IMG/VR virus record: IMGVR_UViG_3300028602_000003 | Origin: an uncultured virus (IMG/VR IMGVR_UViG_3300028602_000003) | Lineage: Duplodnaviria > Heunggongvirae > Uroviricota > Caudoviricetes > Schitoviridae | Direction: 5' to 3' (one strand) | Length of the DNA stretch: 20,000 nucleotides | Shown: piece by piece, positions 5,105 through 20,000 of the stretch | Layout of the letters: every line of letters starts with the position of its first letter | Position numbering within the stretch: the first letter of the stretch is position 1 | Translations under genes and position numbers: made by a program | Notes under the pieces: generated by a model | Told to the model about the DNA's origin: nothing | The model's input: only the letters and a program-made list of their open reading frames with translations | Database searches by the model: none

Positions 5105-5479
5105 TTACTCCTTGGCTCGCTTAGCACGTAGCCGTTGATTTCTGAGATGACTTACCAATTCAAGGTGTGCAGGGTTACAGCACAAGCGGTTATTGCACTT
5201 GTGATCCACCTGCTTTTTACCTGGGATGTACCCATAGAAATGGGTGAATACAACTAGATGCACAGCCACTGTCTGACTGTTAAGAGACATACGCCCATAA
5301 CCGCCACCACGCCCAGTGCCTGAATCAGGACCGATCCAAATGTGACAAGGGCTTGGTTGGTTATTTAAGACAAAACCCATATCACGTACTTCTACGCGCT
5401 CATGGATACGTTTCAGAATACAGTCACGACGTTCGTAGCTGACTTGGGCATCTAGTGCTAGAGGCCCGTACTTACTCAT
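5105..5479 (-). CDS. Free-standing HNH endonuclease (N4 gp22-like)
   Basis: CHIWIG....GYGRM.......AVHLVVF......KQVDHKCNNRLCCNPAHLE (HNH_3 type). Start set at ATG 5479, overlapping the upstream stop. Confidence 0.85.
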   Translation of the reverse strand: MSKYGPLALDAQVSYERRDCILKRIHERVEVRDMGFVLNNQPSPCHIWIGPDSGTGRGGGYGRMSLNSQTVAVHLVVFTHFYGYIPGKKQVDHKCNNRLCCNPAHLELVSHLRNQRLRAKRAKE

Positions 5480-6005
5480 TTTTACCAGTAAGCCTTTCGA
5501 CTTCACCCAAGTACTTAAGAATGGCAGCACGCAATGGTGCTTTGAGATTGTTAAACAACAAAGCAGACTTCTCAGGGCAAGCTTCGTTAAACACCCAAGC
5601 AGCATTGTTCAACGCAGTGCCCCAATTCTCAGCATCAGCGGTGTAATCAATGCCTTGCTTTACTGGTTCAGGTTTTACCTCTGGTTCACCTTGCTCAACA
5701 GCATCTTCGAAAAACTTCCCCATCGTGTAGTAACCACGTTGAGACACAGTGGTGCGTAGCACGTCTTTACGTACATCAACGTACTCAACACCCAGCTGCT
5801 TCATCGTTGGCGGGTTATCCATCTTGGCCACTAAAGCCATGAAGTGTGCGAAGTCACTTGGGAAACAGGTTATTACATGGGGGCGATCCCACGTTTCACT
5901 GATACCGAAAGCTGTACTGAGCTGATGGATAACCTTGTTCTGTACAGCCAGTGATAGTGTCATGCGTACACGAGGGACAGGTTTGTACTTGTCGTTGCTC
6001 ATCAC
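5472..6005 (-). CDS. Hypothetical protein
   Basis: 177-aa ORF, GAGG RBS, start overlaps the upstream stop (ATGA). Confidence 0.7.
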   Translation of the reverse strand: MMSNDKYKPVPRVRMTLSLAVQNKVIHQLSTAFGISETWDRPHVITCFPSDFAHFMALVAKMDNPPTMKQLGVEYVDVRKDVLRTTVSQRGYYTMGKFFEDAVEQGEPEVKPEPVKQGIDYTADAENWGTALNNAAWVFNEACPEKSALLFNNLKAPLRAAILKYLGEVERLTGKNE

Positions 6006-7839: not shown

Positions 7840-8821
7840 CACTTGTTTACTGTGAGCGTTACCTCACAGCCTTAGACACCATGATTAACATGGAAACCAT
7901 ATTTCACATCAGCAGCTTTCCTGGCTGCGGCTGCTTCATCTAGTGTTTTGTAAGAGCCTAATCCGACTTGTTTACGATTCACCATAATGAAAGCTTGGTA
8001 CTTACCTGACGGTAATTTACGTACTCCTTGTACGCCGGATGTGTTATTGCGACGCAATCGCATATTCATCTGGTTTTCTCGACTACCCACATCTCTCATG
8101 TTGAGCCAACGATTGTTGGACCGGTCATGATCAATGTGGTCAATCTGTACTGGCCACTCTCCTGTCTGCATCATCCATATGACCCTATGGGCAAGGTATT
8201 CCTTTCCCCCAATAGACATACTGCGATACCCCCCACTATGTGAGTAAGTAGCAATATTCCCCTTGGTTCCCTGTAAAGTGTCCAGCTTTCTTGTTATTTC
8301 CCCTGAGTAAGGGCAGTAACTAAAGACTGCTAGTAACTCTGCTTGGGTTATTACGGTCATATTTGTTATGCGGTTTTTGCACTGATAACAGAGATGCCCT
8401 ACGTTGCTTTTGCGGGCATCGTAGATGTTTACTACGTACCGGTTTGGGCAGTAGTGGCATACGCATTTGGCTTTGTGTTTGGAGAGTTTTTGAATAATTT
8501 GATGGTCTTGTAGCATATGGCTTACTCGGTTTGTGCATGATGGTTTAGATCATACCCTAACCTTGTTACTAAGTCTCCGTCTTTCGTCGGAGTGTCGGAC
8601 TATATCTTCACCCTCTGTAAACAGTAGGGGCAAGGCACTTCAGCGGGGACTTCCCTCGCTTACGGACATTATTCACCGTTCTGGTGTCTCGTCCTAGTCT
8701 CTGAACCTTCTATACATTCCTGCATAGCTTGGCTGCTGATTGGCATAGGCGTAAGCCCTTAGCTTTCCAGCAATTCACCTTGTATCGGTACGGATTACTC
8801 CGTAAAGGACCGTTTATATTC
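7840..8821 (-). mobile_element. Group I self-splicing intron in RNAP2, HEG in the P9 region
   Basis: P1 GACU|G-AAUAUAAA-CGGUC with U.G at the splice site. P10 AAAC pairs with 3' exon GUUU. P AAUUGCUGGAAAG (8775-8763), Q AAUCAGCAGC (8741-8732), R UUCAGAGACUA (8705-8695), S AAGAUAUAGUCC (8608-8597). P3 CAAGGUG/UGCCUUG. 3' hairpin CUGUGAG-GUAACG-CUCACAG and terminal G at 7840. Confidence 0.95.
7872..8516 (-). CDS. Intron-encoded HNH-AP2 homing endonuclease with N-terminal Cys cluster
   Basis: CHYC...CYQC at the N-terminus; YLAHRVIW...GEWP.QIDHIDHDRSNNRWLN (HNH); NTSGVQGV.....GKYQAFI.....VGLGSY.T.DEAAAAR..A (AP2). Confidence 0.9.
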   Translation of the reverse strand: MLQDHQIIQKLSKHKAKCVCHYCPNRYVVNIYDARKSNVGHLCYQCKNRITNMTVITQAELLAVFSYCPYSGEITRKLDTLQGTKGNIATYSHSGGYRSMSIGGKEYLAHRVIWMMQTGEWPVQIDHIDHDRSNNRWLNMRDVGSRENQMNMRLRRNNTSGVQGVRKLPSGKYQAFIMVNRKQVGLGSYKTLDEAAAARKAADVKYGFHVNHGV

Positions 8822-9842
8822 AGTCATGCACAGTCAGGATCTGGAAAGGCTTCTCAGGCAGGCTGTCGATAAGCTCCCAGATGTCCTTGTGATCCACCAG
8901 CATGGCGTTATGCACCTGGATATGATCCAAGATGCGTGCAGACAGATAGCCGGTCTTCTTGTAGTGATCCCACAAGGTCTGGACCATACGGCTATCTTTA
9001 TCCTCCTTTGGTTCCTCAATGATGTGGCAGTTGTCCATAGCGTTGATGCAACGAATGATCACAGCAGGATCATAGTCACAGCGACGTACCATCTCACGAA
9101 CGATCATGCCGTCAAAGGTGTGGGTTGAGTTAGCCCCCAATGAACGACCGCCTTCGGTAGGCATATTCACTTCAGTGAATACATCGAAAGGCTCATTAAG
9201 GAAGTGAACAGTCTCTTTGACTTTGCCCATTACCTTCCACTTAGCATGGAAGTTGTCAGGCATCACCAGTGAGTAGCTGTAAGCTTCTGGGTTCCAAATA
9301 GACAGGTATGTCTCATTCAGTTCCCATGCAGCAGGAGCTACTGTCTTCATCACGTCGTAGAACACGTTAAGCAATGTACCTGTGCCAAATACATCCTTAG
9401 GCACAGCAGTGGAGCCATACAGCGCAGTCAGGATGGCATCCTTGGTTCGCTCTCGGGAGATAACACTGCTCTCGCCAAGGGCACGTACCATCATCTCGTA
9501 GATGACTGTGTAGGCATCCTCACGGTCACCTGTATCAACTACGTTGCACAGTTCAGCAGCACTGCGATCACCTGTCAGTACAGCCAAGATCTGGAAACCA
9601 GAGGCAGTAGCATCGAGTGAGATTGGGTAGCCAGAAGCTTCACCACGTTCAGCTGCCTTGAAGGCATTGATACCAGCGAAGTACATAGCTGGTTCTTTGG
9701 CTTCTTTGATGAGATCAAGCAGGTGGTGACTATTGTTGTCGAACCAAGTAAGACGCTCATTCCAGCTCTTCTTGTCTAAGCCATAGCTGTTGGCTATGTC
9801 GATCTTTAGATACTCTTTACCAGTGAAAGTTTGAAAAGCCAT
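8822..9842 (-). CDS. N4-like RNA polymerase II subunit 2 (RNAP2, gp16-like), exon 1
   Basis: T7-type motif A SLDATASGFQIL, motif B RERTKDAILTALYGS, motif C TVHD at the exon end. GGAG RBS. Confidence 0.93.
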
Positions 9843-13389: not shown

Positions 13390-13746
13390 CTAATAATTAA
13401 CAAGGAAGTATGGCTTGGCCAACATATCCAAATAGCTAATCATGTGTTTGGTTCCACGAGATTTACCATCCCAGAAGATCAAGGCTAGGCAGCATGCCTT
13501 ACCCATCTCTTCATTTCTGACGAAACCAGCACGCTTACCTAGACCATTCCAGTCAGGTATGAACTTGTGGGTAGGCAAACCAAGCTGACTGAATATGCTG
13601 TATCCCAGCATGTCTGCGCCTTTGGCCATGCCACAGATAAGCTCAACAGAGTCATCAATAATGCCTTTCTCTTGTAGCTCTTGAAGGGCTTGCACCATCA
13701 GTGCGTGATCATTGAAGTCACGCCCTCCTGCTATGAGTAGGTTCAT
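13390..13746 (-). CDS. SLOG-superfamily protein (DUF2493/YspA-like)
   Basis: LLIAGGRDFND...ICGMAKGAD.LG.......PDW...GKRAGFVRNEEM......IFWDGKSRGTKHMI. Confidence 0.85.
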   Translation of the reverse strand: MNLLIAGGRDFNDHALMVQALQELQEKGIIDDSVELICGMAKGADMLGYSIFSQLGLPTHKFIPDWNGLGKRAGFVRNEEMGKACCLALIFWDGKSRGTKHMISYLDMLAKPYFLVNY

Positions 13747-13925: not shown

Positions 13926-14001
13926 CTAACTTACCTCTAATTTAGCTGGTTAGTGTTTAGGCTGTCATAGCCAAAAATGGCTATTTTTTAACTTTTAGGT
14001 T

Positions 14002-14205
14002 TTAGATAGTTGAACTAGGAGAAGTGACTACTACAACTGATTTACCGTCGATAAATACTTCGATACCGCAGCTGTTTACATCAGCGTATTGCTGGGCAAT
14101 CCATTCGATTAAGCCATCACCCTCAGGTAGATCTTTGATCAACTCTTTCGTTGATCCATCGTTGAAGTGGAATACGAATTTAACTTTCTTGAGCTGTACG
14201 ATCAT
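14002..14205 (-). CDS. Hypothetical protein
   Basis: 67-aa ORF on the same strand, following a terminator. Confidence 0.55.
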   Translation of the reverse strand: MIVQLKKVKFVFHFNDGSTKELIKDLPEGDGLIEWIAQQYADVNSCGIEVFIDGKSVVVVTSPSSTI

Positions 14206-14222
14206 GTCTATCTATCCCAAAT

Positions 14223-14261
14223 AAAAACCAACGGGAGCCTCTAGTGAGACTCCCATTGGTT
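14223..14261 (-). terminator. Rho-independent terminator
   Basis: Minus strand AACCAAUGGGAGUCU-CACUAG-AGGCUCCCGUUGGUU-UUU, right after the gp2-like stop. Confidence 0.8.
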
Positions 14262-14266
14262 CGTTG

Positions 14267-14665
14267 TTACAGCGCCAGTACGCGAGCGAAGGCGTTGTTT
14301 TCGGTAGTAGCTTCAGCCACGTCCTCGTTGACACGACGCAGTTGGATTTCCAACTTGAGGATGCGGTCTTCGCCTGGCTTCAGGGTTTCAGCAACAGCCA
14401 TGATCTGCGCGTGCAGGTCATTCCGTGCTGCCTGGAACTGAGCGAACTGAGCATTGCTGCTCTTGGTGGACAGCTCGGTTTGAGTGTCCAACGGGATGCC
14501 CATAGGCAGGCTGACGAAGCGATGCTCTTGGCCTGCTTCGGTCTGGACATCGACGCCATAACCAATGTTCAGCCAGTACTCTGCTTTTGGCAGAGCTTCT
14601 TTGGCAGCAACAGGCTTAGCGCCGAAAGTTTTGGTGAAATCAACAGCGTTGTTGGTGGTAGCCAT
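14267..14665 (-). CDS. drc: N4 gp2-like ssDNA-binding RNAP II cofactor (Drc-like)
   Basis: LPKAEYWLNIGY...FVSLPMGIPLD...ARNDL..QIM..AETLKPGE...LEIQLRRV. Early position behind a hairpin promoter. Confidence 0.8.
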   Translation of the reverse strand: MATTNNAVDFTKTFGAKPVAAKEALPKAEYWLNIGYGVDVQTEAGQEHRFVSLPMGIPLDTQTELSTKSSNAQFAQFQAARNDLHAQIMAVAETLKPGEDRILKLEIQLRRVNEDVAEATTENNAFARVLAL

Positions 14666-14699
14666 GAGGTATTACTCCAGAGTGATAACAAGGCAGAAT

Positions 14700-14721
14700 T
14701 GCCACAAGGCACGAAGTGCCT
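14700..14721 (-). promoter_or_regulatory. Virion-RNAP hairpin early promoter
   Basis: Template (+) strand TGCC-ACAA-GGCAC-GAA-GTGCC: 5-6 bp stem, GAA triloop, 4-nt A-rich spacer to CC, which is the N4 vRNAP promoter architecture. Confidence 0.8.
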
Positions 14722-14726
14722 AGATG

Positions 14727-14888
14727 TCAGGACCAATAATGATCCTGAACAGACCAGCGATAAGAGACGGCAACCCAAAGGATGCCAACTAAGCACATGA
14801 CAGGGTGTAGTCCATGAAAGTCTGTTTCATAGGACCAACCCGTATACATGAACATTACGATGCAGAGTGCAGCAATGATTGCTCTCAT
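14727..14888 (-). CDS. Small membrane protein (53 aa)
   Basis: MRAIIAALCIVMFMYTGWSY...; ATG 14888 with AAGGA RBS; two hydrophobic segments. Confidence 0.5.
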   Translation of the reverse strand: MRAIIAALCIVMFMYTGWSYETDFHGLHPVMCLVGILWVAVSYRWSVQDHYWS

Positions 14889-14892
14889 TGGT

Positions 14893-15027
14893 TCAGTCCT
14901 TTGCCTTGGAGGCGTAAGTGAATGACCAAAGACCGTCTTGTTTGAAACAACGGTCAGGGATGCCATGACCTTGCGATATAGCAAGGCGCAGTGTGTCCAT
15001 GAAGGTAAAGCCAACGATAGTGATCAT
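14893..15027 (-). CDS. Small hypothetical early protein (44 aa)
   Basis: Manual translation MITIVGFTFMDTLRLAISQGHGIPDRCFKQDGLWSFTYASKAKD*; AAGG RBS; packs tightly between neighbours. Confidence 0.45.
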   Translation of the reverse strand: MITIVGFTFMDTLRLAISQGHGIPDRCFKQDGLWSFTYASKAKD

Positions 15028-15031
15028 GATT

Positions 15032-15214
15032 TTAACCTTGTGAAGGATTGAGCATTTGCTCAATACGGTTGTTAAGAAGAGTCAGCTCTTCCAGTTGTTT
15101 TTGAGTACAAGTGCTCTGTTGTGCCATAGAGCAGAGACGTTGTACTTGGTGAATAAGTTGAATGTGACGTTTAACTTGATGGCCCAGTTGAGCCATAGGG
15201 GAATTGTGGTACAT
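15032..15214 (-). CDS. Small hypothetical early protein (60 aa)
   Basis: MYHNSPMAQLG...; ATG 15214 with AAGGTG RBS. Confidence 0.55.
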   Translation of the reverse strand: MYHNSPMAQLGHQVKRHIQLIHQVQRLCSMAQQSTCTQKQLEELTLLNNRIEQMLNPSQG

Positions 15215-15440
15215 GGGTTGATCACCTTTTCGGATGTGTTTAGGGGAACACATAGAATGACTTACCCTAAGGTAAGTCTAAAAGTTTAGGATATGGTAGT
15301 TAAATCAATTAGTTAGGTGCTGGATAAGTACATCAAACTAAGTTAAAAAGCACTGAAACAGGACCTAATCTATCCTCACGTACATGAGGAATAATCCTAG
15401 TGCCTATCTTCGATGTCCTGCGGACTATCTTAAATTAAGG

Positions 15441-15462
15441 GTTGGGAGCGTTAGCTCCCAAC
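15441..15462 (-). terminator. Hairpin after the gp1-like gene (probable terminator or processing site)
   Basis: Perfect 9-bp stem GTTGGGAGC-GTTA-GCTCCCAAC, 4 nt past the stop; weak U-tract. Confidence 0.5.
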
Positions 15463-15466
15463 GGTG

Positions 15467-15784
15467 TTACTTGGTACGCAGGATGCCTGCATACTTGGTG
15501 TAAGCAGACTCATAGGCGTCTGCATGTGCCTTGGATAGCGAGATGAACTCTTGGACAGCGATGGTGCTGTCAGTTTCTTCTTTGGCCTTGCGACGGATGA
15601 GATCTTCGATGAAGGTCTCTTTGTCTGCGAGGATGTTGAGTTGTTGCTCTTGGGCTGCGTTCTGTACGAACGCTGATGCCATAGAGACTGCATGAGTAAC
15701 CACGTCGAGGGACTTGGTTACTGTGTTAGCAGTAGTGGATACGGTGCTGAGTAGTGCGCCGAATGTTGCACGGGATGTGGACAT
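15467..15784 (-). CDS. N4 gp1-like first early protein
   Basis: 105-aa helical protein (RATFGALLSTVSTTANTVT..LDV....V.M...FV); first gene behind the first hairpin promoter. Confidence 0.7.
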   Translation of the reverse strand: MSTSRATFGALLSTVSTTANTVTKSLDVVTHAVSMASAFVQNAAQEQQLNILADKETFIEDLIRRKAKEETDSTIAVQEFISLSKAHADAYESAYTKYAGILRTK

Positions 15785-15811
15785 GGTGAACCCCTATAGG
15801 TGATGGCGAAG

Positions 15812-15832
15812 TGCCACAACCCACGAAGTGGG
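15812..15832 (-). promoter_or_regulatory. Virion-RNAP hairpin early promoter (first, Pe1-like)
   Basis: Template (+) strand TGCC-ACAA-CCCAC-GAA-GTGGG; flank and core identical to 14700..14721, with covarying outer stem. Confidence 0.82.
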
Positions 15833-16015
15833 GGTATGTGTGAATGTGTGAAGTGTTTAGTACCGGGGGGTACTTTTAGGATTGGGGGGTGTGAACAGTG
15901 TGAGTACTGCAACCAGACATACATACAAAAAATTATAAAAGTTTTCATCCCCTACCCTGAGACATACATAAGAAAAAATCTAAAAGTTTCTACCCCAAAC
16001 ACTTCTCTAAAAATA

Positions 16016-16303
16016 TTAGAAAATATAGTCCCCATTAAAACTAGATGTTTCTTGTGGGTAGTAGCAGTTACGTATCTTATCTCGCCATTCCTTCTCATCC
16101 TTTGGATCAGGCCAAGCTATATCTACTACGTGAAAGAACTTCATGAAACCCCGGTCATATTCCCTCTCCTTGGTTCGGCTTCCAATCTCTATGGTTAGCA
16201 TCTTACCGTAGAGGAGGCACATACCAGTCATGTATTCCAAGACTTCTTTGCTAGCTACGTTTACGTAGACTGAACCTTCAGGGTGTTCAAAGAGCTGAGC
16301 CAA
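16016..16303 (-). CDS. Hypothetical protein (start uncertain)
   Basis: 95-aa ORF with a TTG start; the frame stays open about 20 codons further upstream. Confidence 0.5.
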   Translation of the reverse strand: MAQLFEHPEGSVYVNVASKEVLEYMTGMCLLYGKMLTIEIGSRTKEREYDRGFMKFFHVVDIAWPDPKDEKEWRDKIRNCYYPQETSSFNGDYIF

Positions 16304-16395
16304 TGGGACTGGTTTAGGTAATGCTCCTGCGTTTGAGTACAGATAATATTTGAGATTCCTATCTCACCAATTAGATATAAGTTTAAGTAATAGGT

Positions 16396-16427
16396 AAAAA
16401 TAAGGGCAGATTTCTCTGCCCTTATTT
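16396..16427 (-). terminator. Rho-independent terminator with GAAA tetraloop
   Basis: Minus strand AAAUAAGGGCAGA-GAAA-UCUGCCCUUAUUUUU. Confidence 0.85.
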
Positions 16428-16544
16428 GTGTCAGCCCCTAGCGTATTGCAATACAGAGATGAGTCTGTACTAGGAGTTTGCTATGACTGACTGCGCGGTT
16501 ATCTCCTCCACCATTCGCTGGGAGGCTATGGCCCATCAAGTACA
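16396..16544 (-). ncRNA. Candidate structured small RNA (~150 nt)
   Basis: Bounded by a sigma70-like promoter and a strong terminator; several internal stems; the only ORF is 32 codons with no RBS. Confidence 0.4.
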
Positions 16545-16549
16545 ACGTG

Positions 16550-16578
16550 AATCTAGAACAGGACTTACAGGGTGTCCA
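16550..16578 (-). promoter_or_regulatory. Putative sigma70 promoter
   Basis: Minus strand TGGACA-17 nt-TAGATT. Confidence 0.5.
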
Positions 16579-16834
16579 GTTTATTTAAAATGTCTGTAGG
16601 GTCTGAGGCAAAAAAGACTATAGGTGCCCCGTAGAACCAGGAGTTTGTATAGGCACCTTCTACGTGTAAGTAGATGGTGATCTCACTACCCATGAGTAAC
16701 TGAAGCCCCTCAAATAGTGGGCGTTGGCTCTCATCTTCTATGAGCAGAACCGCATCTTCTTCTGCATAAAGCTCTTCAAGAGTAGCTTCTAGATAGGGGC
16801 CGCTGGCCTTTCTTTTATATAGAGTAAGTTCCAT
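16565..16834 (-). CDS. Hypothetical protein (89 aa)
   Basis: MELTLYKRK...; ATG 16834 with AAGGGG RBS. Confidence 0.6.
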   Translation of the reverse strand: MELTLYKRKASGPYLEATLEELYAEEDAVLLIEDESQRPLFEGLQLLMGSEITIYLHVEGAYTNSWFYGAPIVFFASDPTDILNKLDTL

Positions 16835-16904
16835 TACAGCCCCTTGGTTCGGCGTAGCAGAAGCAATAGATATCCCTACCCACATACACAGTAGGGAAAA
16901 CAGG

Positions 16905-16933
16905 TTGCGGTGTATCTAAAGCTAGCCTAAAGT
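16905..16933 (+). promoter_or_regulatory. Putative sigma70 promoter for the plus-strand block
   Basis: TTGCGG-17 nt-TAAAGT, about 30 nt upstream of ATG 16965. Confidence 0.35.
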
Positions 16934-16964
16934 CTATCCCCATAAACCACAAGAGGGAAGCACC

Positions 16965-17426
16965 ATGAGCGTAGCAAATAAAGTAGTACCACAAGATCTG
17001 GAAGACGAGATTGCCAGTGAGGTTTATCACGTGTTGCCCAACACCACGACAACGGTAGCAATGCTTACCACGAAGACAGGGTGGGATCTGACAGGTATCA
17101 GTGCGTGTGTGGACCCAGCCAACTTCAATGAAGAGGTTGGTCGTAAATGGGCACGAGAGGATGCACTGAAGAAGCTGTGGCCTCTGTTGGGTTTCCGGCT
17201 GAAGGACAAGCTTCACCTATTGGCTCAAGCGCCTGTCAGTACTTTTGCCGGTCGGTTGATGGATGAGCAGCGTGAGCTTGCTGAGAAGATTGAGAAATTA
17301 GATGTGTTTTGTAAGGGAGCAGTGTTTCAGGGACTGAGTCCTATTGCTCAAGACAATCTCACGGAGCAGCTTGTGGTGATGCGGCATTACAATAAGATCC
17401 TACTGAATCGCATTGACGGGCTGTAA
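16965..17426 (+). CDS. Gp49/Sf6-gp66-family domain fused to a crAss001_48-like helical domain; putative double nucleotide-signal sponge (Acb4-like plus Sequestin-like)
   Basis: N-half TTVAMLTTKTGW.LTG.SACVDPANFNEEVGRK.A.EDA..KLWPLLGF.L; C-half RL.DEQ.EL.EKIEKL..F.....F..L....Q..L..Q...M..Y..IL..RI. Confidence 0.75.
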   Translation: MSVANKVVPQDLEDEIASEVYHVLPNTTTTVAMLTTKTGWDLTGISACVDPANFNEEVGRKWAREDALKKLWPLLGFRLKDKLHLLAQAPVSTFAGRLMDEQRELAEKIEKLDVFCKGAVFQGLSPIAQDNLTEQLVVMRHYNKILLNRIDGL

Positions 17427-17434
17427 TTAGAGTC

Positions 17435-17470
17435 ATCTTTAGGGGAGCAATCCCCTTTAGATTTATTTTT
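17435..17470 (+). terminator. Probable terminator
   Basis: AGGGGA-GCAA-TCCCCT stem followed by a T-rich tract, after the stop at 17426. Confidence 0.55.
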
Positions 17471-17482
17471 GAGGAAGAAGTT

Positions 17483-18157
17483 ATGCTAACCAAAAAAGAG
17501 ATAGAGCTTTCCTTACCAGCACACCTGAAGAGTTCTGCCACCCAAGAACTCGCTGACAAGGTGAATGCGGTTACGTCAGACCCTATTATGGCTGAGCATA
17601 TTAGAGATAATTTTATTTCGTATGTAGGGGTGCTACGTGAAGGGAAGTTTAAGACAGAGGACTATCTGAATGCTGTCACCTACACCAGCTACAAGCTGAT
17701 GGGGTATAGCAACCAAGATGCCTACTTCAAAACCTTCCCTGCTCGTCATCAAGCATTGGTAGCTAAAGGCACTAGCTCTAAAGACATCAGTGCGTATGTG
17801 AGTGCCTACCATAAAGGTAAGCTGGTCACGATGATCATTGAGCAATCCTTGGTGCCATCGTGGGTGCTTAACCAGGATGTGTACCAGAAGGCTATTAATG
17901 TGCAGGCTGATCTGATGCTGAATGCCCAGAGTGAGAAGGTACGCTCCGATGCAGCTAACAGTTTGCTGACTCACCTGAGCAAGCCTAAGGAGGCAGGCCC
18001 ACTGATCAACATTGATATGCGTGAGACTTCGGGTATGAAGGAAATGCAGGAGATGATGATGCAGATTGCTACCCGTCAGCGTGAAGCCATTGGTGCGGGC
18101 GTGACTACTAAAGAGATCGCAGCTCAGCGAATCTTTCATGATGAGGTGGTGGGATGA
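17483..18157 (+). CDS. N4 gp69-like protein (putative terminase small subunit)
   Basis: IRDNFISY..VL.EGKFK.EDYLNAV.Y.SYKLMG.SN.DAY.KTFP.R...SEKVRSDAANSLLTHL..P; upstream of TerL; GAGG RBS. Confidence 0.8.
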   Translation: MLTKKEIELSLPAHLKSSATQELADKVNAVTSDPIMAEHIRDNFISYVGVLREGKFKTEDYLNAVTYTSYKLMGYSNQDAYFKTFPARHQALVAKGTSSKDISAYVSAYHKGKLVTMIIEQSLVPSWVLNQDVYQKAINVQADLMLNAQSEKVRSDAANSLLTHLSKPKEAGPLINIDMRETSGMKEMQEMMMQIATRQREAIGAGVTTKEIAAQRIFHDEVVG

Positions 18158-18363
18158 TCTACTTCTATTATGCAGATGGTGTGGTGAAGAAGTTCACCAA
18201 TGAGGAACGGCTACGTAATTACCTGTCCAGTGGGAAGACCCCACTGGCTGCACGAGTGACACACGAGATCACGATGAGTAAATTCATGGACGTACTCGAT
18301 GCAGTGAATTGTGTGTATGGCTTTGTAAAACTGGAAGGGACTATTGCATATGGCACTCGTTAA
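18154..18363 (+). CDS. Hypothetical protein inserted between gp69-like and TerL
   Basis: 69 aa, overlaps both neighbours (ATGA coupling upstream). Confidence 0.6.
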   Translation: MIYFYYADGVVKKFTNEERLRNYLSSGKTPLAARVTHEITMSKFMDVLDAVNCVYGFVKLEGTIAYGTR

Positions 18364-19939
18364 GCAGGGCTTGGATGAGTGGCTGAACCAAGTGGACTAC
18401 TCAGAGCTGAACAGTAATGCGTACATGCCCAGTGTCTTTGCCCTCATCTTTATGAACTTCATCAAGATGGTGAACGGTGCTCAAGGTGAGAGCAACAAGA
18501 CACCACCTGTTCACTTGAAGATGCTGGATAAGATCGTAGGGCCATCCTCCTATATTGCTAACCTGTGCTTCCGTGGTGCAGGTAAGACAGCTGTATTCAT
18601 GGAATACCTGACACTGTTCGTGGCCATGTACGGTCACCTGCCTGAGTTTGGTGACATCACTGGCATGATCTACGTGTCTGACTCAATGGAGAACGGGGTA
18701 GCATCTGCACGTAAGAACATCGAGTTTCGCTACAACAACAGTGAATTCCTTCAGTACTGGATTCCTGAAGCTAAATTTACCGATAAGTACATGGAGTTTA
18801 AGAATCGGGATGGCCACCCACTAGGTGTACGGATGTTCGGTGCCAAGACAGGTCTTCGTGGTACGAAGATCTTTGGTAAGCGCCCTGTGTTGGCAATCCT
18901 TGATGACTTGGTTAGTGATGATGACGCCAAGTCTAAGGTGTCCATGATCGCTATCAAGGACACTGTATATAAAGGTGTAAACCACGCACTCGACCCAACA
19001 CGTCGTAAGGTTGTATTCAACGGTACACCCTTCAACATTGATGACATCCTTATTGAAGCGGTTGAGTCTGGTCAGTGGGATGTGAACGTATGGCCTGTAT
19101 GTGAGCGTTTCCCTTGCTCACGGGAAGAGTTTGTTGGTGCATGGGAAGATCGCTTCAGCTTTGACTACATACAAGAGCAGTACAACATGGCTGTTGGTAC
19201 TGGCAAGCTTGGTTCCTTTTATCAGGAGCTGATGCTACGCATTACGTCTGAAGAAGAACGCCTGGTGCAAGATGATGAGATTCGTTGGTACAAACGAGCC
19301 AATCTACTCGCTAACCAGACCTCGTTTAACTTCTATGTGACTACCGACTTCGCTACGTCCGCTAAGCAGACAGCTGACTTCTCTGTCATCTCCAATTGGG
19401 CATATAACGCCAATGGTGATCTGTTCTGGGTAGACGGTATCTGTGAACGGCAGACGATGGATAAAACCATCGACTCACTGTTTAAGTTTGTTCAGCAGTA
19501 TCGTCCGCAATCTGTGGGTGTAGAGGTGACTGGGCAGCAAGGTGCATTCATCACTTGGCTCCAAGGAGAGATGCTAAACCGGAACATTTGGTTCAACTTT
19601 GCTTCGTCTGAGCAGAGCGGTTCTCCAGGTATTCGCCCTGTTACGGATAAGCTAAGCCGGTTTAACTTAGTAGTTCCTTGGTTCAAGATGGGTAAGATAT
19701 ACTTCCCTGAAGAAATGAGACATTCTAAGATTGTCGGCCAATTCATTGAGCAGATCCGCCTAGCCACACAAAGTGGGCTTAAAGGTAAGGATGACTGCCT
19801 CGATACAATTTCCATGCTTGGTTACATGAAGATGTGGAAACCATCTGAATCTGGTCCAGCTACTCCCGATGAAGTTGAGGTGTGGGAGGAGACTCATGGA
19901 CAAGAACAAGCAACCCCTCTTTCTTCCTACATCGTGTGA
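18350..19939 (+). CDS. terL: Terminase large subunit (N4 gp68-like)
   Basis: CFRGAGKT Walker A, LAILDDL Walker B, FNGTP motif, nuclease domain YVTTDFA...DFS...GVE...DDCLD. Likely start ATG 18350. Confidence 0.93.
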   Translation: MALVKQGLDEWLNQVDYSELNSNAYMPSVFALIFMNFIKMVNGAQGESNKTPPVHLKMLDKIVGPSSYIANLCFRGAGKTAVFMEYLTLFVAMYGHLPEFGDITGMIYVSDSMENGVASARKNIEFRYNNSEFLQYWIPEAKFTDKYMEFKNRDGHPLGVRMFGAKTGLRGTKIFGKRPVLAILDDLVSDDDAKSKVSMIAIKDTVYKGVNHALDPTRRKVVFNGTPFNIDDILIEAVESGQWDVNVWPVCERFPCSREEFVGAWEDRFSFDYIQEQYNMAVGTGKLGSFYQELMLRITSEEERLVQDDEIRWYKRANLLANQTSFNFYVTTDFATSAKQTADFSVISNWAYNANGDLFWVDGICERQTMDKTIDSLFKFVQQYRPQSVGVEVTGQQGAFITWLQGEMLNRNIWFNFASSEQSGSPGIRPVTDKLSRFNLVVPWFKMGKIYFPEEMRHSKIVGQFIEQIRLATQSGLKGKDDCLDTISMLGYMKMWKPSESGPATPDEVEVWEETHGQEQATPLSSYIV

Positions 19940-19945
19940 GGAATT

Positions 19946-20000
19946 ATGAACGTAGAACAAATGTACGAGGCATTGTCCTATGGGGAATTGTCCAACCTTG
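19946..20000 (+). CDS. N4 gp67-like virion protein, N-terminus (partial)
   Basis: GAGG RBS, MNVEQMYEALSYGELSNL; follows TerL as in N4. Confidence 0.7.
   Translation, partial: MNVEQMYEALSYGELSNL

Follow-up and report, generated by a model that had tools for sequence, protein, structure and literature searches.

The 20,000-nucleotide stretch of DNA analysed here, called the window below, comes from an uncultured virus of the Schitoviridae (IMG/VR record IMGVR_UViG_3300028602_000003) and carries an intact open reading frame, from an ATG at 16965 to a stop codon ending at 17426, whose product (P0001) joins an Acb4 domain to a Sequestin domain (Table 1). The gene lies 56 bases ahead of that for the small terminase subunit (terS), on the same strand. 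The terS product is 67% identical to the annotated small terminase of phage Arace01 and 54% to that of Paxi; the large subunit (terL) is 77% identical to that of Zurivirus zuri and 77.6% to those of the Pseudomonas putida phages Ebordelon and Holyagarpour, the closest terminases being those of Pseudomonas phages. The whole record of 73,321 bases is that of an N4-like phage (Schitoviridae), with a size in the 70-77 kb range, an N4-type terminase and an RNA polymerase open reading frame (PF00940) at 8820-9842. The strand of the terminase genes and the fusion gene, opposite to that of the SSB gene, also carries an open reading frame of 3,585 aa, which has the size of a virion polymerase and is so called on its length and location only.

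The sequence-only reading had placed the gene at the genome end ahead of the packaging genes. The second part of that placement stands, but the window edge is likely not the physical end, because the first and last 127 bases of the record are identical and the record was opened just past terL. An annotated terminal repeat (Zuri, G7C) or record end (Paxi) lies 1.7-3.4 kb upstream of terS and, by synteny with these phages, the physical end is probably upstream of the P0001 gene. That end likely falls in the divergent region that separates the early genes from the terminase unit, which also holds two tandem 45-base AT-rich copies, 76% alike, at 15915-16004. Between two minus-strand open reading frames, at 16398-16427, two 13-base arms form a perfect inverted repeat around a 4-base loop, flanked by A/T and possibly serving as a terminator; a repeat search of 14000-17600 gave nothing linked to the P0001 gene. 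A 69-aa open reading frame on the plus strand (18154-18363) overlaps both terS and terL at its ends and gives no Pfam or PHROG match; Littlefix, too, has an extra gene between terS and terL, which the other cultured relatives viewed lack. Elsewhere in the window, the early region encodes a SLOG-family (YAcAr, PF10686) protein (13390-13746, minus strand), which we take to have a nucleotide-binding fold and which is conserved in inbricus. Three HNH endonuclease genes occur within 8 kb (978-1544, 5105-5605 and 7872-8516, minus strand), one of them directly behind the RNA polymerase II genes. A 67-aa open reading frame (14002-14205, minus strand) matches Dmd (PF17587), presumably the T4 antitoxin of RnlA/LsoA, at E 1.1e-4, which is below the cut-off and a lead only.

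Table 1. Features of the fusion locus and of the related 70-aa domain; positions refer to the window unless another record is named.
Feature	Position	Strand	Remarks
Promoter-like TTGCGG-17-TAAAGT and conserved motif CTAAAGTCTA	16905..16936	+	weak sigma70-like site 16905-16933; motif 16927-16936
Shine-Dalgarno-like AGAGGG	16952-16957	+	seen in the sequence, 7 bases 5' of the P0001 ATG
Acb4-Sequestin fusion gene	16965..17426	+	153 aa (P0001); genome coordinates 70286-70747
Acb4 domain (PF13876), predicted cyclic-dinucleotide sponge	16989..17213	+	residues 9-83
Inter-domain stretch	17214..17240	+	residues 84-92; helix until 88, coil after
Sequestin domain (PF21825), predicted gcADPR sponge	17241..17417	+	residues 93-151; R97, E101, Q135, R149
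GC-rich hairpin (GCAA loop) and T-rich tail	17435..17470	+	between P0001 gene and terS
Small terminase subunit (N4 gp69-like)	17483..18157	+	phrog_2109; directly downstream of P0001 gene
Large terminase subunit	18344..19939	+	phrog_38, E 4.3e-92
Unnamed 70-aa domain (N-half of phrog_872)	L012:2264-2509; L004:3261-3476; P0002 residues 103-172

Domains, model and pockets of P0001

The N-terminal half had been read from sequence as a member of the Gp49/Acb4 family and the C-terminal half as a member of the crAss001_48/Y16Q-like family, and Pfam profile searches bore out both assignments. PF13876 matched at 74.2 bits against a curated cut-off of 27 (E 1.3e-20) and PF21825 (crAss001_48, now Sequestin) at 54.8 bits against 24.8 (E 8.7e-15); the two domains do not overlap, and P0001 is the sole match to either family in the 73,321-base genome, in which a search for Tad2 (PF11195) found none. 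In an AlphaFold2 model built on a 71-sequence alignment (mean pLDDT 96.3), an alpha/beta domain closes with a long helix that reaches residue 88; some five residues of coil (89-93) follow, and a two-helix hairpin (94-152) comes last. The two halves with a short linker were thus read correctly, but the free coil is shorter than the proposed LLAQAPVST. In this model the Acb4 half has a pLDDT near 98 and an Acb4-like fold of three antiparallel strands with flanking helices; the Sequestin helices, 94-116 and 126-152, have pLDDT 92-98. The expected structural match to a known sponge was obtained, as Foldseek ranks 1-10 for the model are all chains of 9e4w, the SPO1 Acb4 (E 6.9e-5, probability 1.00, rmsd 1.3-3.1 over 69-74 columns), which is also the sole PDB match by sequence (E 0.0027; E 1e-10 by profile). 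For the other half, the assignment rests on the Pfam match and on individual residues, because no Sequestin structure was matched in the PDB by sequence, profile or fold, the set searched apparently lacking the gp59 domain structure.

Both families are known from published work. Acb4 (PF13876) is described as a tetrameric cyclic-dinucleotide sponge, and all eight homologues tested are reported to bind 3'3'-cGAMP and leave it uncleaved (Chang et al., 10.1101/2024.12.30.630793). PF21825 was named Sequestin by Tal et al. (10.1101/2025.07.12.664507), whose available text relates its discovery as the commonest fusion partner of Acb4 (91 cases), the inhibition of type I Thoeris by 10 of 13 tested proteins, with three having no effect, and a model of the Acb4-Sequestin fusion of phage YH6. 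TadIV-1 is reported to belong to a different family (PMC13243611). P0001 itself has a near-identical copy in the same frame with two substitutions (L009), the single near-identical locus in a viral-contig search with P0001 as query; a word-index protein search, an insensitive method, gave 17 matches only. Matches covering at least 80% of P0001 came from 73 of the 518 matching phage records, and both domains were present in 118 of the 149 best other matches among 1.84 billion representatives, a partly circular count, as 70 of these matches had gone into the profiles. The Acb4-Sequestin fusion is therefore common and already published, P0001 being not a discovery but a further example, one more divergent fusion among many, and it may already be included in the table of 3,244 IMG/VR Sequestins of Tal et al. 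(10.1101/2025.07.12.664507).

The pockets of the two halves are conserved to different degrees. The Sequestin pocket is reported to comprise R8, E12, Q47 and R61 in SequestinA and R7, E11, Q45 and R59 in SequestinB, of which the E, the Q and the second R are required for anti-defence (10.1101/2025.07.12.664507); the source text has "O47" and "O45", taken here as Q, and the numbering was compared through T4 denB.1. This 64-aa T4 protein (PF21825), which we take to be Y16Q on its length and family, is 29% identical to the Sequestin half, and its R7, E11, Q45 and R59 align with R97, E101, Q135 and R149 of P0001, with the spacing of SequestinB. Among 70 homologues, picked from the 149 best matches as short, full-length, two-domain forms, E101, Q135 and R149 are kept in all 70 and R97 in 66. 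The ten SPO1 Acb4 ligand contacts compared (K36, F48, E49, V56, Y57, F62, N63, I66, T70 and K81) are identical in P0001 at two places (F54, N55), similar at three (W40, D41, V58) and different at five (T28, C48, V49, W62, P73), the register of K36 being uncertain by one; gp59 of phage Ab09, a homologue that does bind, has three of the ten. Several P0001 residues in or near this pocket are rare among the 70 homologues (D41 and T38 in none, W62 in two, W40 in three), and A32 is found in about 4%. The Acb4 core is intact (G39, G44, S46, C48, N53, F54, G59, A63, A67, W72, G76), D41 puts an acid back where SPO1 has E49, and W40 and W62 also occur in P0002, the closest relative. With rare residues in the Acb4 pocket and kept residues in that of Sequestin, the Thoeris arm is therefore well supported and the Acb4 ligand less settled.

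The slot ahead of terS and its transcription

The neighbourhood of terS was surveyed in relatives. From IMG/VR, 69 terS loci were gathered with the terS of this phage, a sample that leans to its kin, and reduced to 47 clusters at 90% identity, the whole records of the representatives being searched for four sponge families. Of the 63 matches (Acb4 30, one of them below cut-off; Sequestin 21; Tad2 11; Acb2/Tad1 1), 60 were on the strand of terS and no more than 4.5 kb upstream of it; a sponge domain was present there in 35 of the 42 records that extend 1 kb or more upstream. Most of these records are short fragments, which favours a terS-proximal result; among those of at least 60 kb, sponge domains were within 2.6 kb upstream of terS in 10 of 11, making up 19 of 20 matches. 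Fifteen cultured phages used the slot in eight cases and had a sponge elsewhere in three (Ab09, 3HA13, Littlefix), and none of three sponge families was found genome-wide in the other four. Four of the fifteen had been chosen as P0001 matches and eleven by terminase, ten of the latter hand-picked from 60 listed matches; in the eleven, the slot was used in five, a sponge lay elsewhere in two and none was found in four. The two sample sets may overlap. The content of the slot varies between Acb4, Sequestin, Tad2, Acb2/Tad1 and fusions, and G7C, 3HA13, ZC08, FSL SP-058 and V21 have no co-oriented gene in it. In one record (that of locus L065), a single open frame of 185 aa holds a Sequestin match that is split in two (G038:56256-56513), through an insertion or the duplication of a segment.

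In this group of N4-like phages, known sponge domains are thus over-represented in the slot ahead of terS. The available text of Fedorova et al. (10.64898/2026.06.04.730250) describes a primase-vRNAP hot spot only, terminase is not mentioned in the accessible part of a 2026 review (PMC13712596), and a literature search, with most subscription journals outside its scope, found no paper on a terS-proximal sponge slot of N4-like phages, a weak sign that it is undescribed.

A promoter upstream of the fusion gene and a terminator downstream had also been proposed, and each survives in a reduced form. A consensus promoter scan gave no site near the P0001 start (four sites in 14000-20000 against 7.3 expected, below chance), but the weak TTGCGG-17-TAAAGT site draws its support solely from conservation in relatives. 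In the window taken alone the promoter-like motif is at chance (1 match against 1.32 expected). The pattern was chosen after the window sequence had been viewed; of 25 hand-picked gene starts ahead of terS, that of the window among them, 14 have it no more than 100 bases away, against 1.7 expected from shuffles. Of 42 IMG/VR representatives, 12 have the 10-base core upstream of terS on the plus strand with one mismatch allowed, counting one that is near-identical to the window, as do 7 of 14 cultured phages; the core is on the minus strand in 2 of 42 and 1 of 14, downstream in 1 of 42 and 0 of 14, and missing at this stringency in 30 of the 42. Because the core stands 95 bases (G7C) and 90 bases (3HA13) before terS with no gene between, the site likely serves the terminase unit, and not the P0001 gene alone, as a late promoter for the host polymerase, and the sponge genes were likely inserted behind it. 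The late genes of N4 are reported to be read by the host sigma70 polymerase with N4SSB (PMC4496689), and in the N4-like phage LUZ7 the genes on the structural-gene strand are all described as transcribed late, from sigma70-like promoters (PMC9163698). The host polymerase would read the P0001 gene late from the terminase-unit promoter, and late expression is, in our judgement, probable.

The hairpin at 17435-17462, with its T-rich tail, is there as proposed but is a modest one (z -2.09; 8 of 200 shuffles as stable). Many relatives have a GC hairpin like it before terS, in which the T tail is often missing. Of 25 spacers ahead of terS, picked by hand and including that of the window, 7 have a hairpin of -8 kcal/mol or lower with a T-rich tail, the one in L058 lying far from the stop; a terminator ahead of terS is not general among these spacers. 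A leaky terminator or an mRNA leader element is the likelier reading of the predicted structure, because a full stop would cut off terS; such an element would damp read-through, so that much more sponge than terminase would be made.

Function of the fusion and the alternatives

The closest guide to the function of P0001 is gp59 of Ab09, studied by Fedorova et al. (10.64898/2026.06.04.730250). According to the available text, this fusion has a very high affinity for gcADPR and a lower one for cGAMP, inhibits type I Thoeris strongly and CBASS II-A in part, and also binds 2'3'-c-di-AMP and triggers Panoptes; SEC-MALS showed gp59 as well as its Acb4 domain to be tetrameric, and its Sequestin domain forms an antiparallel dimer, the two pockets of which bind 1''-3' gcADPR. 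The proposal that one polypeptide could take up both CBASS and Thoeris signals is supported by this demonstration in a homologue and at the same time refined by it, as the anti-CBASS effect is only partial and the Acb4 half is a liability against Panoptes. By analogy, P0001 would likely act without catalysis, as a sponge for two signals: cyclic dinucleotides, the CBASS signals, would be held in a predicted Acb4 tetramer core and 1''-3' gcADPR, the type I Thoeris signal, in predicted Sequestin hairpin pairs, and with both soaked up the host effectors would stay off. A tetramer with tight gcADPR and weaker cGAMP binding, a strong anti-Thoeris and a partial anti-CBASS effect, and a cost against decoy systems of the Panoptes/PanDA type would be expected from gp59. 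We are most confident that the Sequestin half is active, slightly less so, though still with good confidence, that the Acb4 half binds some cyclic dinucleotide, and only lean towards useful protection against a CBASS system.

P0001 and gp59, both from N4-like phages, have the same two domains in the same order (153 and 147 aa), are 34% identical over 145 aa (E 3e-25) and share the R/E/Q/R residues, but differ at several Acb4 pocket residues and in place. The gp59 gene is in the primase-vRNAP hot spot behind the SSB gene and on its strand, beside Bes1 and Bes2, whereas the P0001 gene is ahead of terS on the late strand, opposite to SSB, and lies at 70286-70747, about 40 kb in record coordinates from the SSB and Bes1 matches at 28742-30010. 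In Ab09 and YH6 the fusion gene follows SSB and precedes Bes1; here a Bes1 (Ab09 gp60) homologue (28694-29251, minus strand; 43.5% over 170 aa) comes directly after SSB, and searches of the genome for gp58 and Bes2 at E 0.01 gave no match. Ab09 with gp59 alone deleted is reported to have stayed resistant (10.64898/2026.06.04.730250), because Bes1 and Bes2 are redundant in function, and the P0001 gene may be dispensable since its genome also encodes a Bes1 homologue.

With the Sequestin family the C-terminal half shares the Pfam match, the predicted two-helix hairpin and the four named pocket residues, but the members tested are reported to be mostly stand-alone (10.1101/2025.07.12.664507) and that of P0001 is fused to Acb4. 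The SPO1 Acb4 (PDB 9E4W) shares with the N-terminal half PF13876 and a three-strand sheet with flanking helices; unlike P0001 it is a single-domain protein, and it is 25-27% identical, with two of ten ligand contacts the same. Acb4 proteins of phages with Gram-negative hosts are reported to bind c-di-AMP as well (10.1101/2024.12.30.630793; 10.64898/2026.08.10.743972), and by analogy this is the likelier pattern for the Acb4 half of P0001. Nearest in arrangement are Paxi gp90, QDWS595 gp06, RHph_I1_6 gp87, inbricus gp38 and Arace01 gp2, which have both domains and stand directly ahead of terS in cultured N4-like phages, annotated as hypothetical; P0001 is 38-43% identical to those of Paxi, QDWS595 and inbricus. 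In Paxi and QDWS595 the fusion also has Tad2 genes upstream of it.

The main alternative is that only the Sequestin half is a sponge and that the Acb4 half, its ligand lost or changed, provides the scaffold of a tetramer; the phage would then not spring traps of the Panoptes/PanDA type. It is favoured by D41, T38, W62 and A32, which are uncommon residues at or close to the Acb4 pocket, and loss would be selectable given that Acb4 domains are reported to trip decoy systems: gp59 triggers Panoptes (10.64898/2026.06.04.730250), N4 Acb4, which binds c-di-AMP at 111 nM, and Bas69 Acb4 trip PanDA, and escaper mutations fall in acb4 (10.64898/2026.08.10.743972). However, the core is intact in a confidently predicted fold, the acid of D41 and the sharing of W40 and W62 with P0002 speak against it, and the eight-of-eight record of cGAMP binding by homologues (10.1101/2024.12.30.630793) counts the same way, so that this alternative is unlikely.

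Two further explanations fare worse. A DNA-packaging role would account for a place in the terminase unit, and is in keeping with the short distance to terS on one strand and with the Acb4-family genes at the same place in many relatives; the varying content of the slot, its lack of a co-oriented gene in the five phages named above, and the Ab09 copy, which lies far from terS and whose deletion is reported to be tolerated (10.64898/2026.06.04.730250), make it very improbable. That the fusion arose by an assembly or frameshift error joining two neighbouring genes has in its favour the one point that the record is a metagenomic assembly, and even its slight chance falls to next to nothing against the intact frame in L009, the 73 phage records matching at least 80% of P0001 and the 118 of 149 best other matches with both domains, by which this reading is refuted. 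The two-signal sponge remains the preferred reading.

An unnamed partner domain and the meaning of the slot

The closest relatives of the Acb4 half, P0002 (72%) and P0003 (59%), carry between Acb4 and Sequestin an unnamed domain of 70 aa, which is also added to the inbricus and Arace01 fusions and is absent from P0001; a tblastn search of the P0001 genome (E 1) gave no match to it. The domain is present in 15 of the 149 best-match representatives and in 23 fetched loci, two weak partial matches having been discounted as extra copies, and it has Acb4, Sequestin or the two together as fusion partners, or stands alone two genes from an Acb2/Tad1 gene. None of 16 members searched had a Pfam match and no PDB sequence matched; Foldseek gave nothing at E 0.001, SPO1 Tad2 chains at E 1.9-3.5 being a lead only. 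It is predicted to form a small beta barrel, with a best VIA Z of 4.8 to SH3/Tudor-like barrels, and its Atlas neighbours are all unnamed.

This company makes the 70-aa domain a candidate further sponge. The wider proposal, that N4-like phages have a second, late-expressed sponge cassette, bounded by the terminase-unit promoter and terS and with swapped and fused Acb4, Sequestin, Tad2 and Acb2/Tad1 modules, and that the 70-aa domain joined to these in close relatives is an undescribed sponge for a signal outside the reach of the known families, is offered tentatively, as the two parts together are somewhat doubtful.

For the biology of these phages, the rare pocket residues make P0001 a fair test case for a shift in Acb4 specificity, setting CBASS evasion against the tripping of decoy systems. 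The slot ahead of terS is a more useful result than P0001 itself, and the small unnamed genes and domains in it are ready candidates for new anti-defence proteins, by the logic of fusion and neighbourhood that led to Sequestin. Its position on the late strand is, in addition, a testable claim about when in infection sponges are needed.
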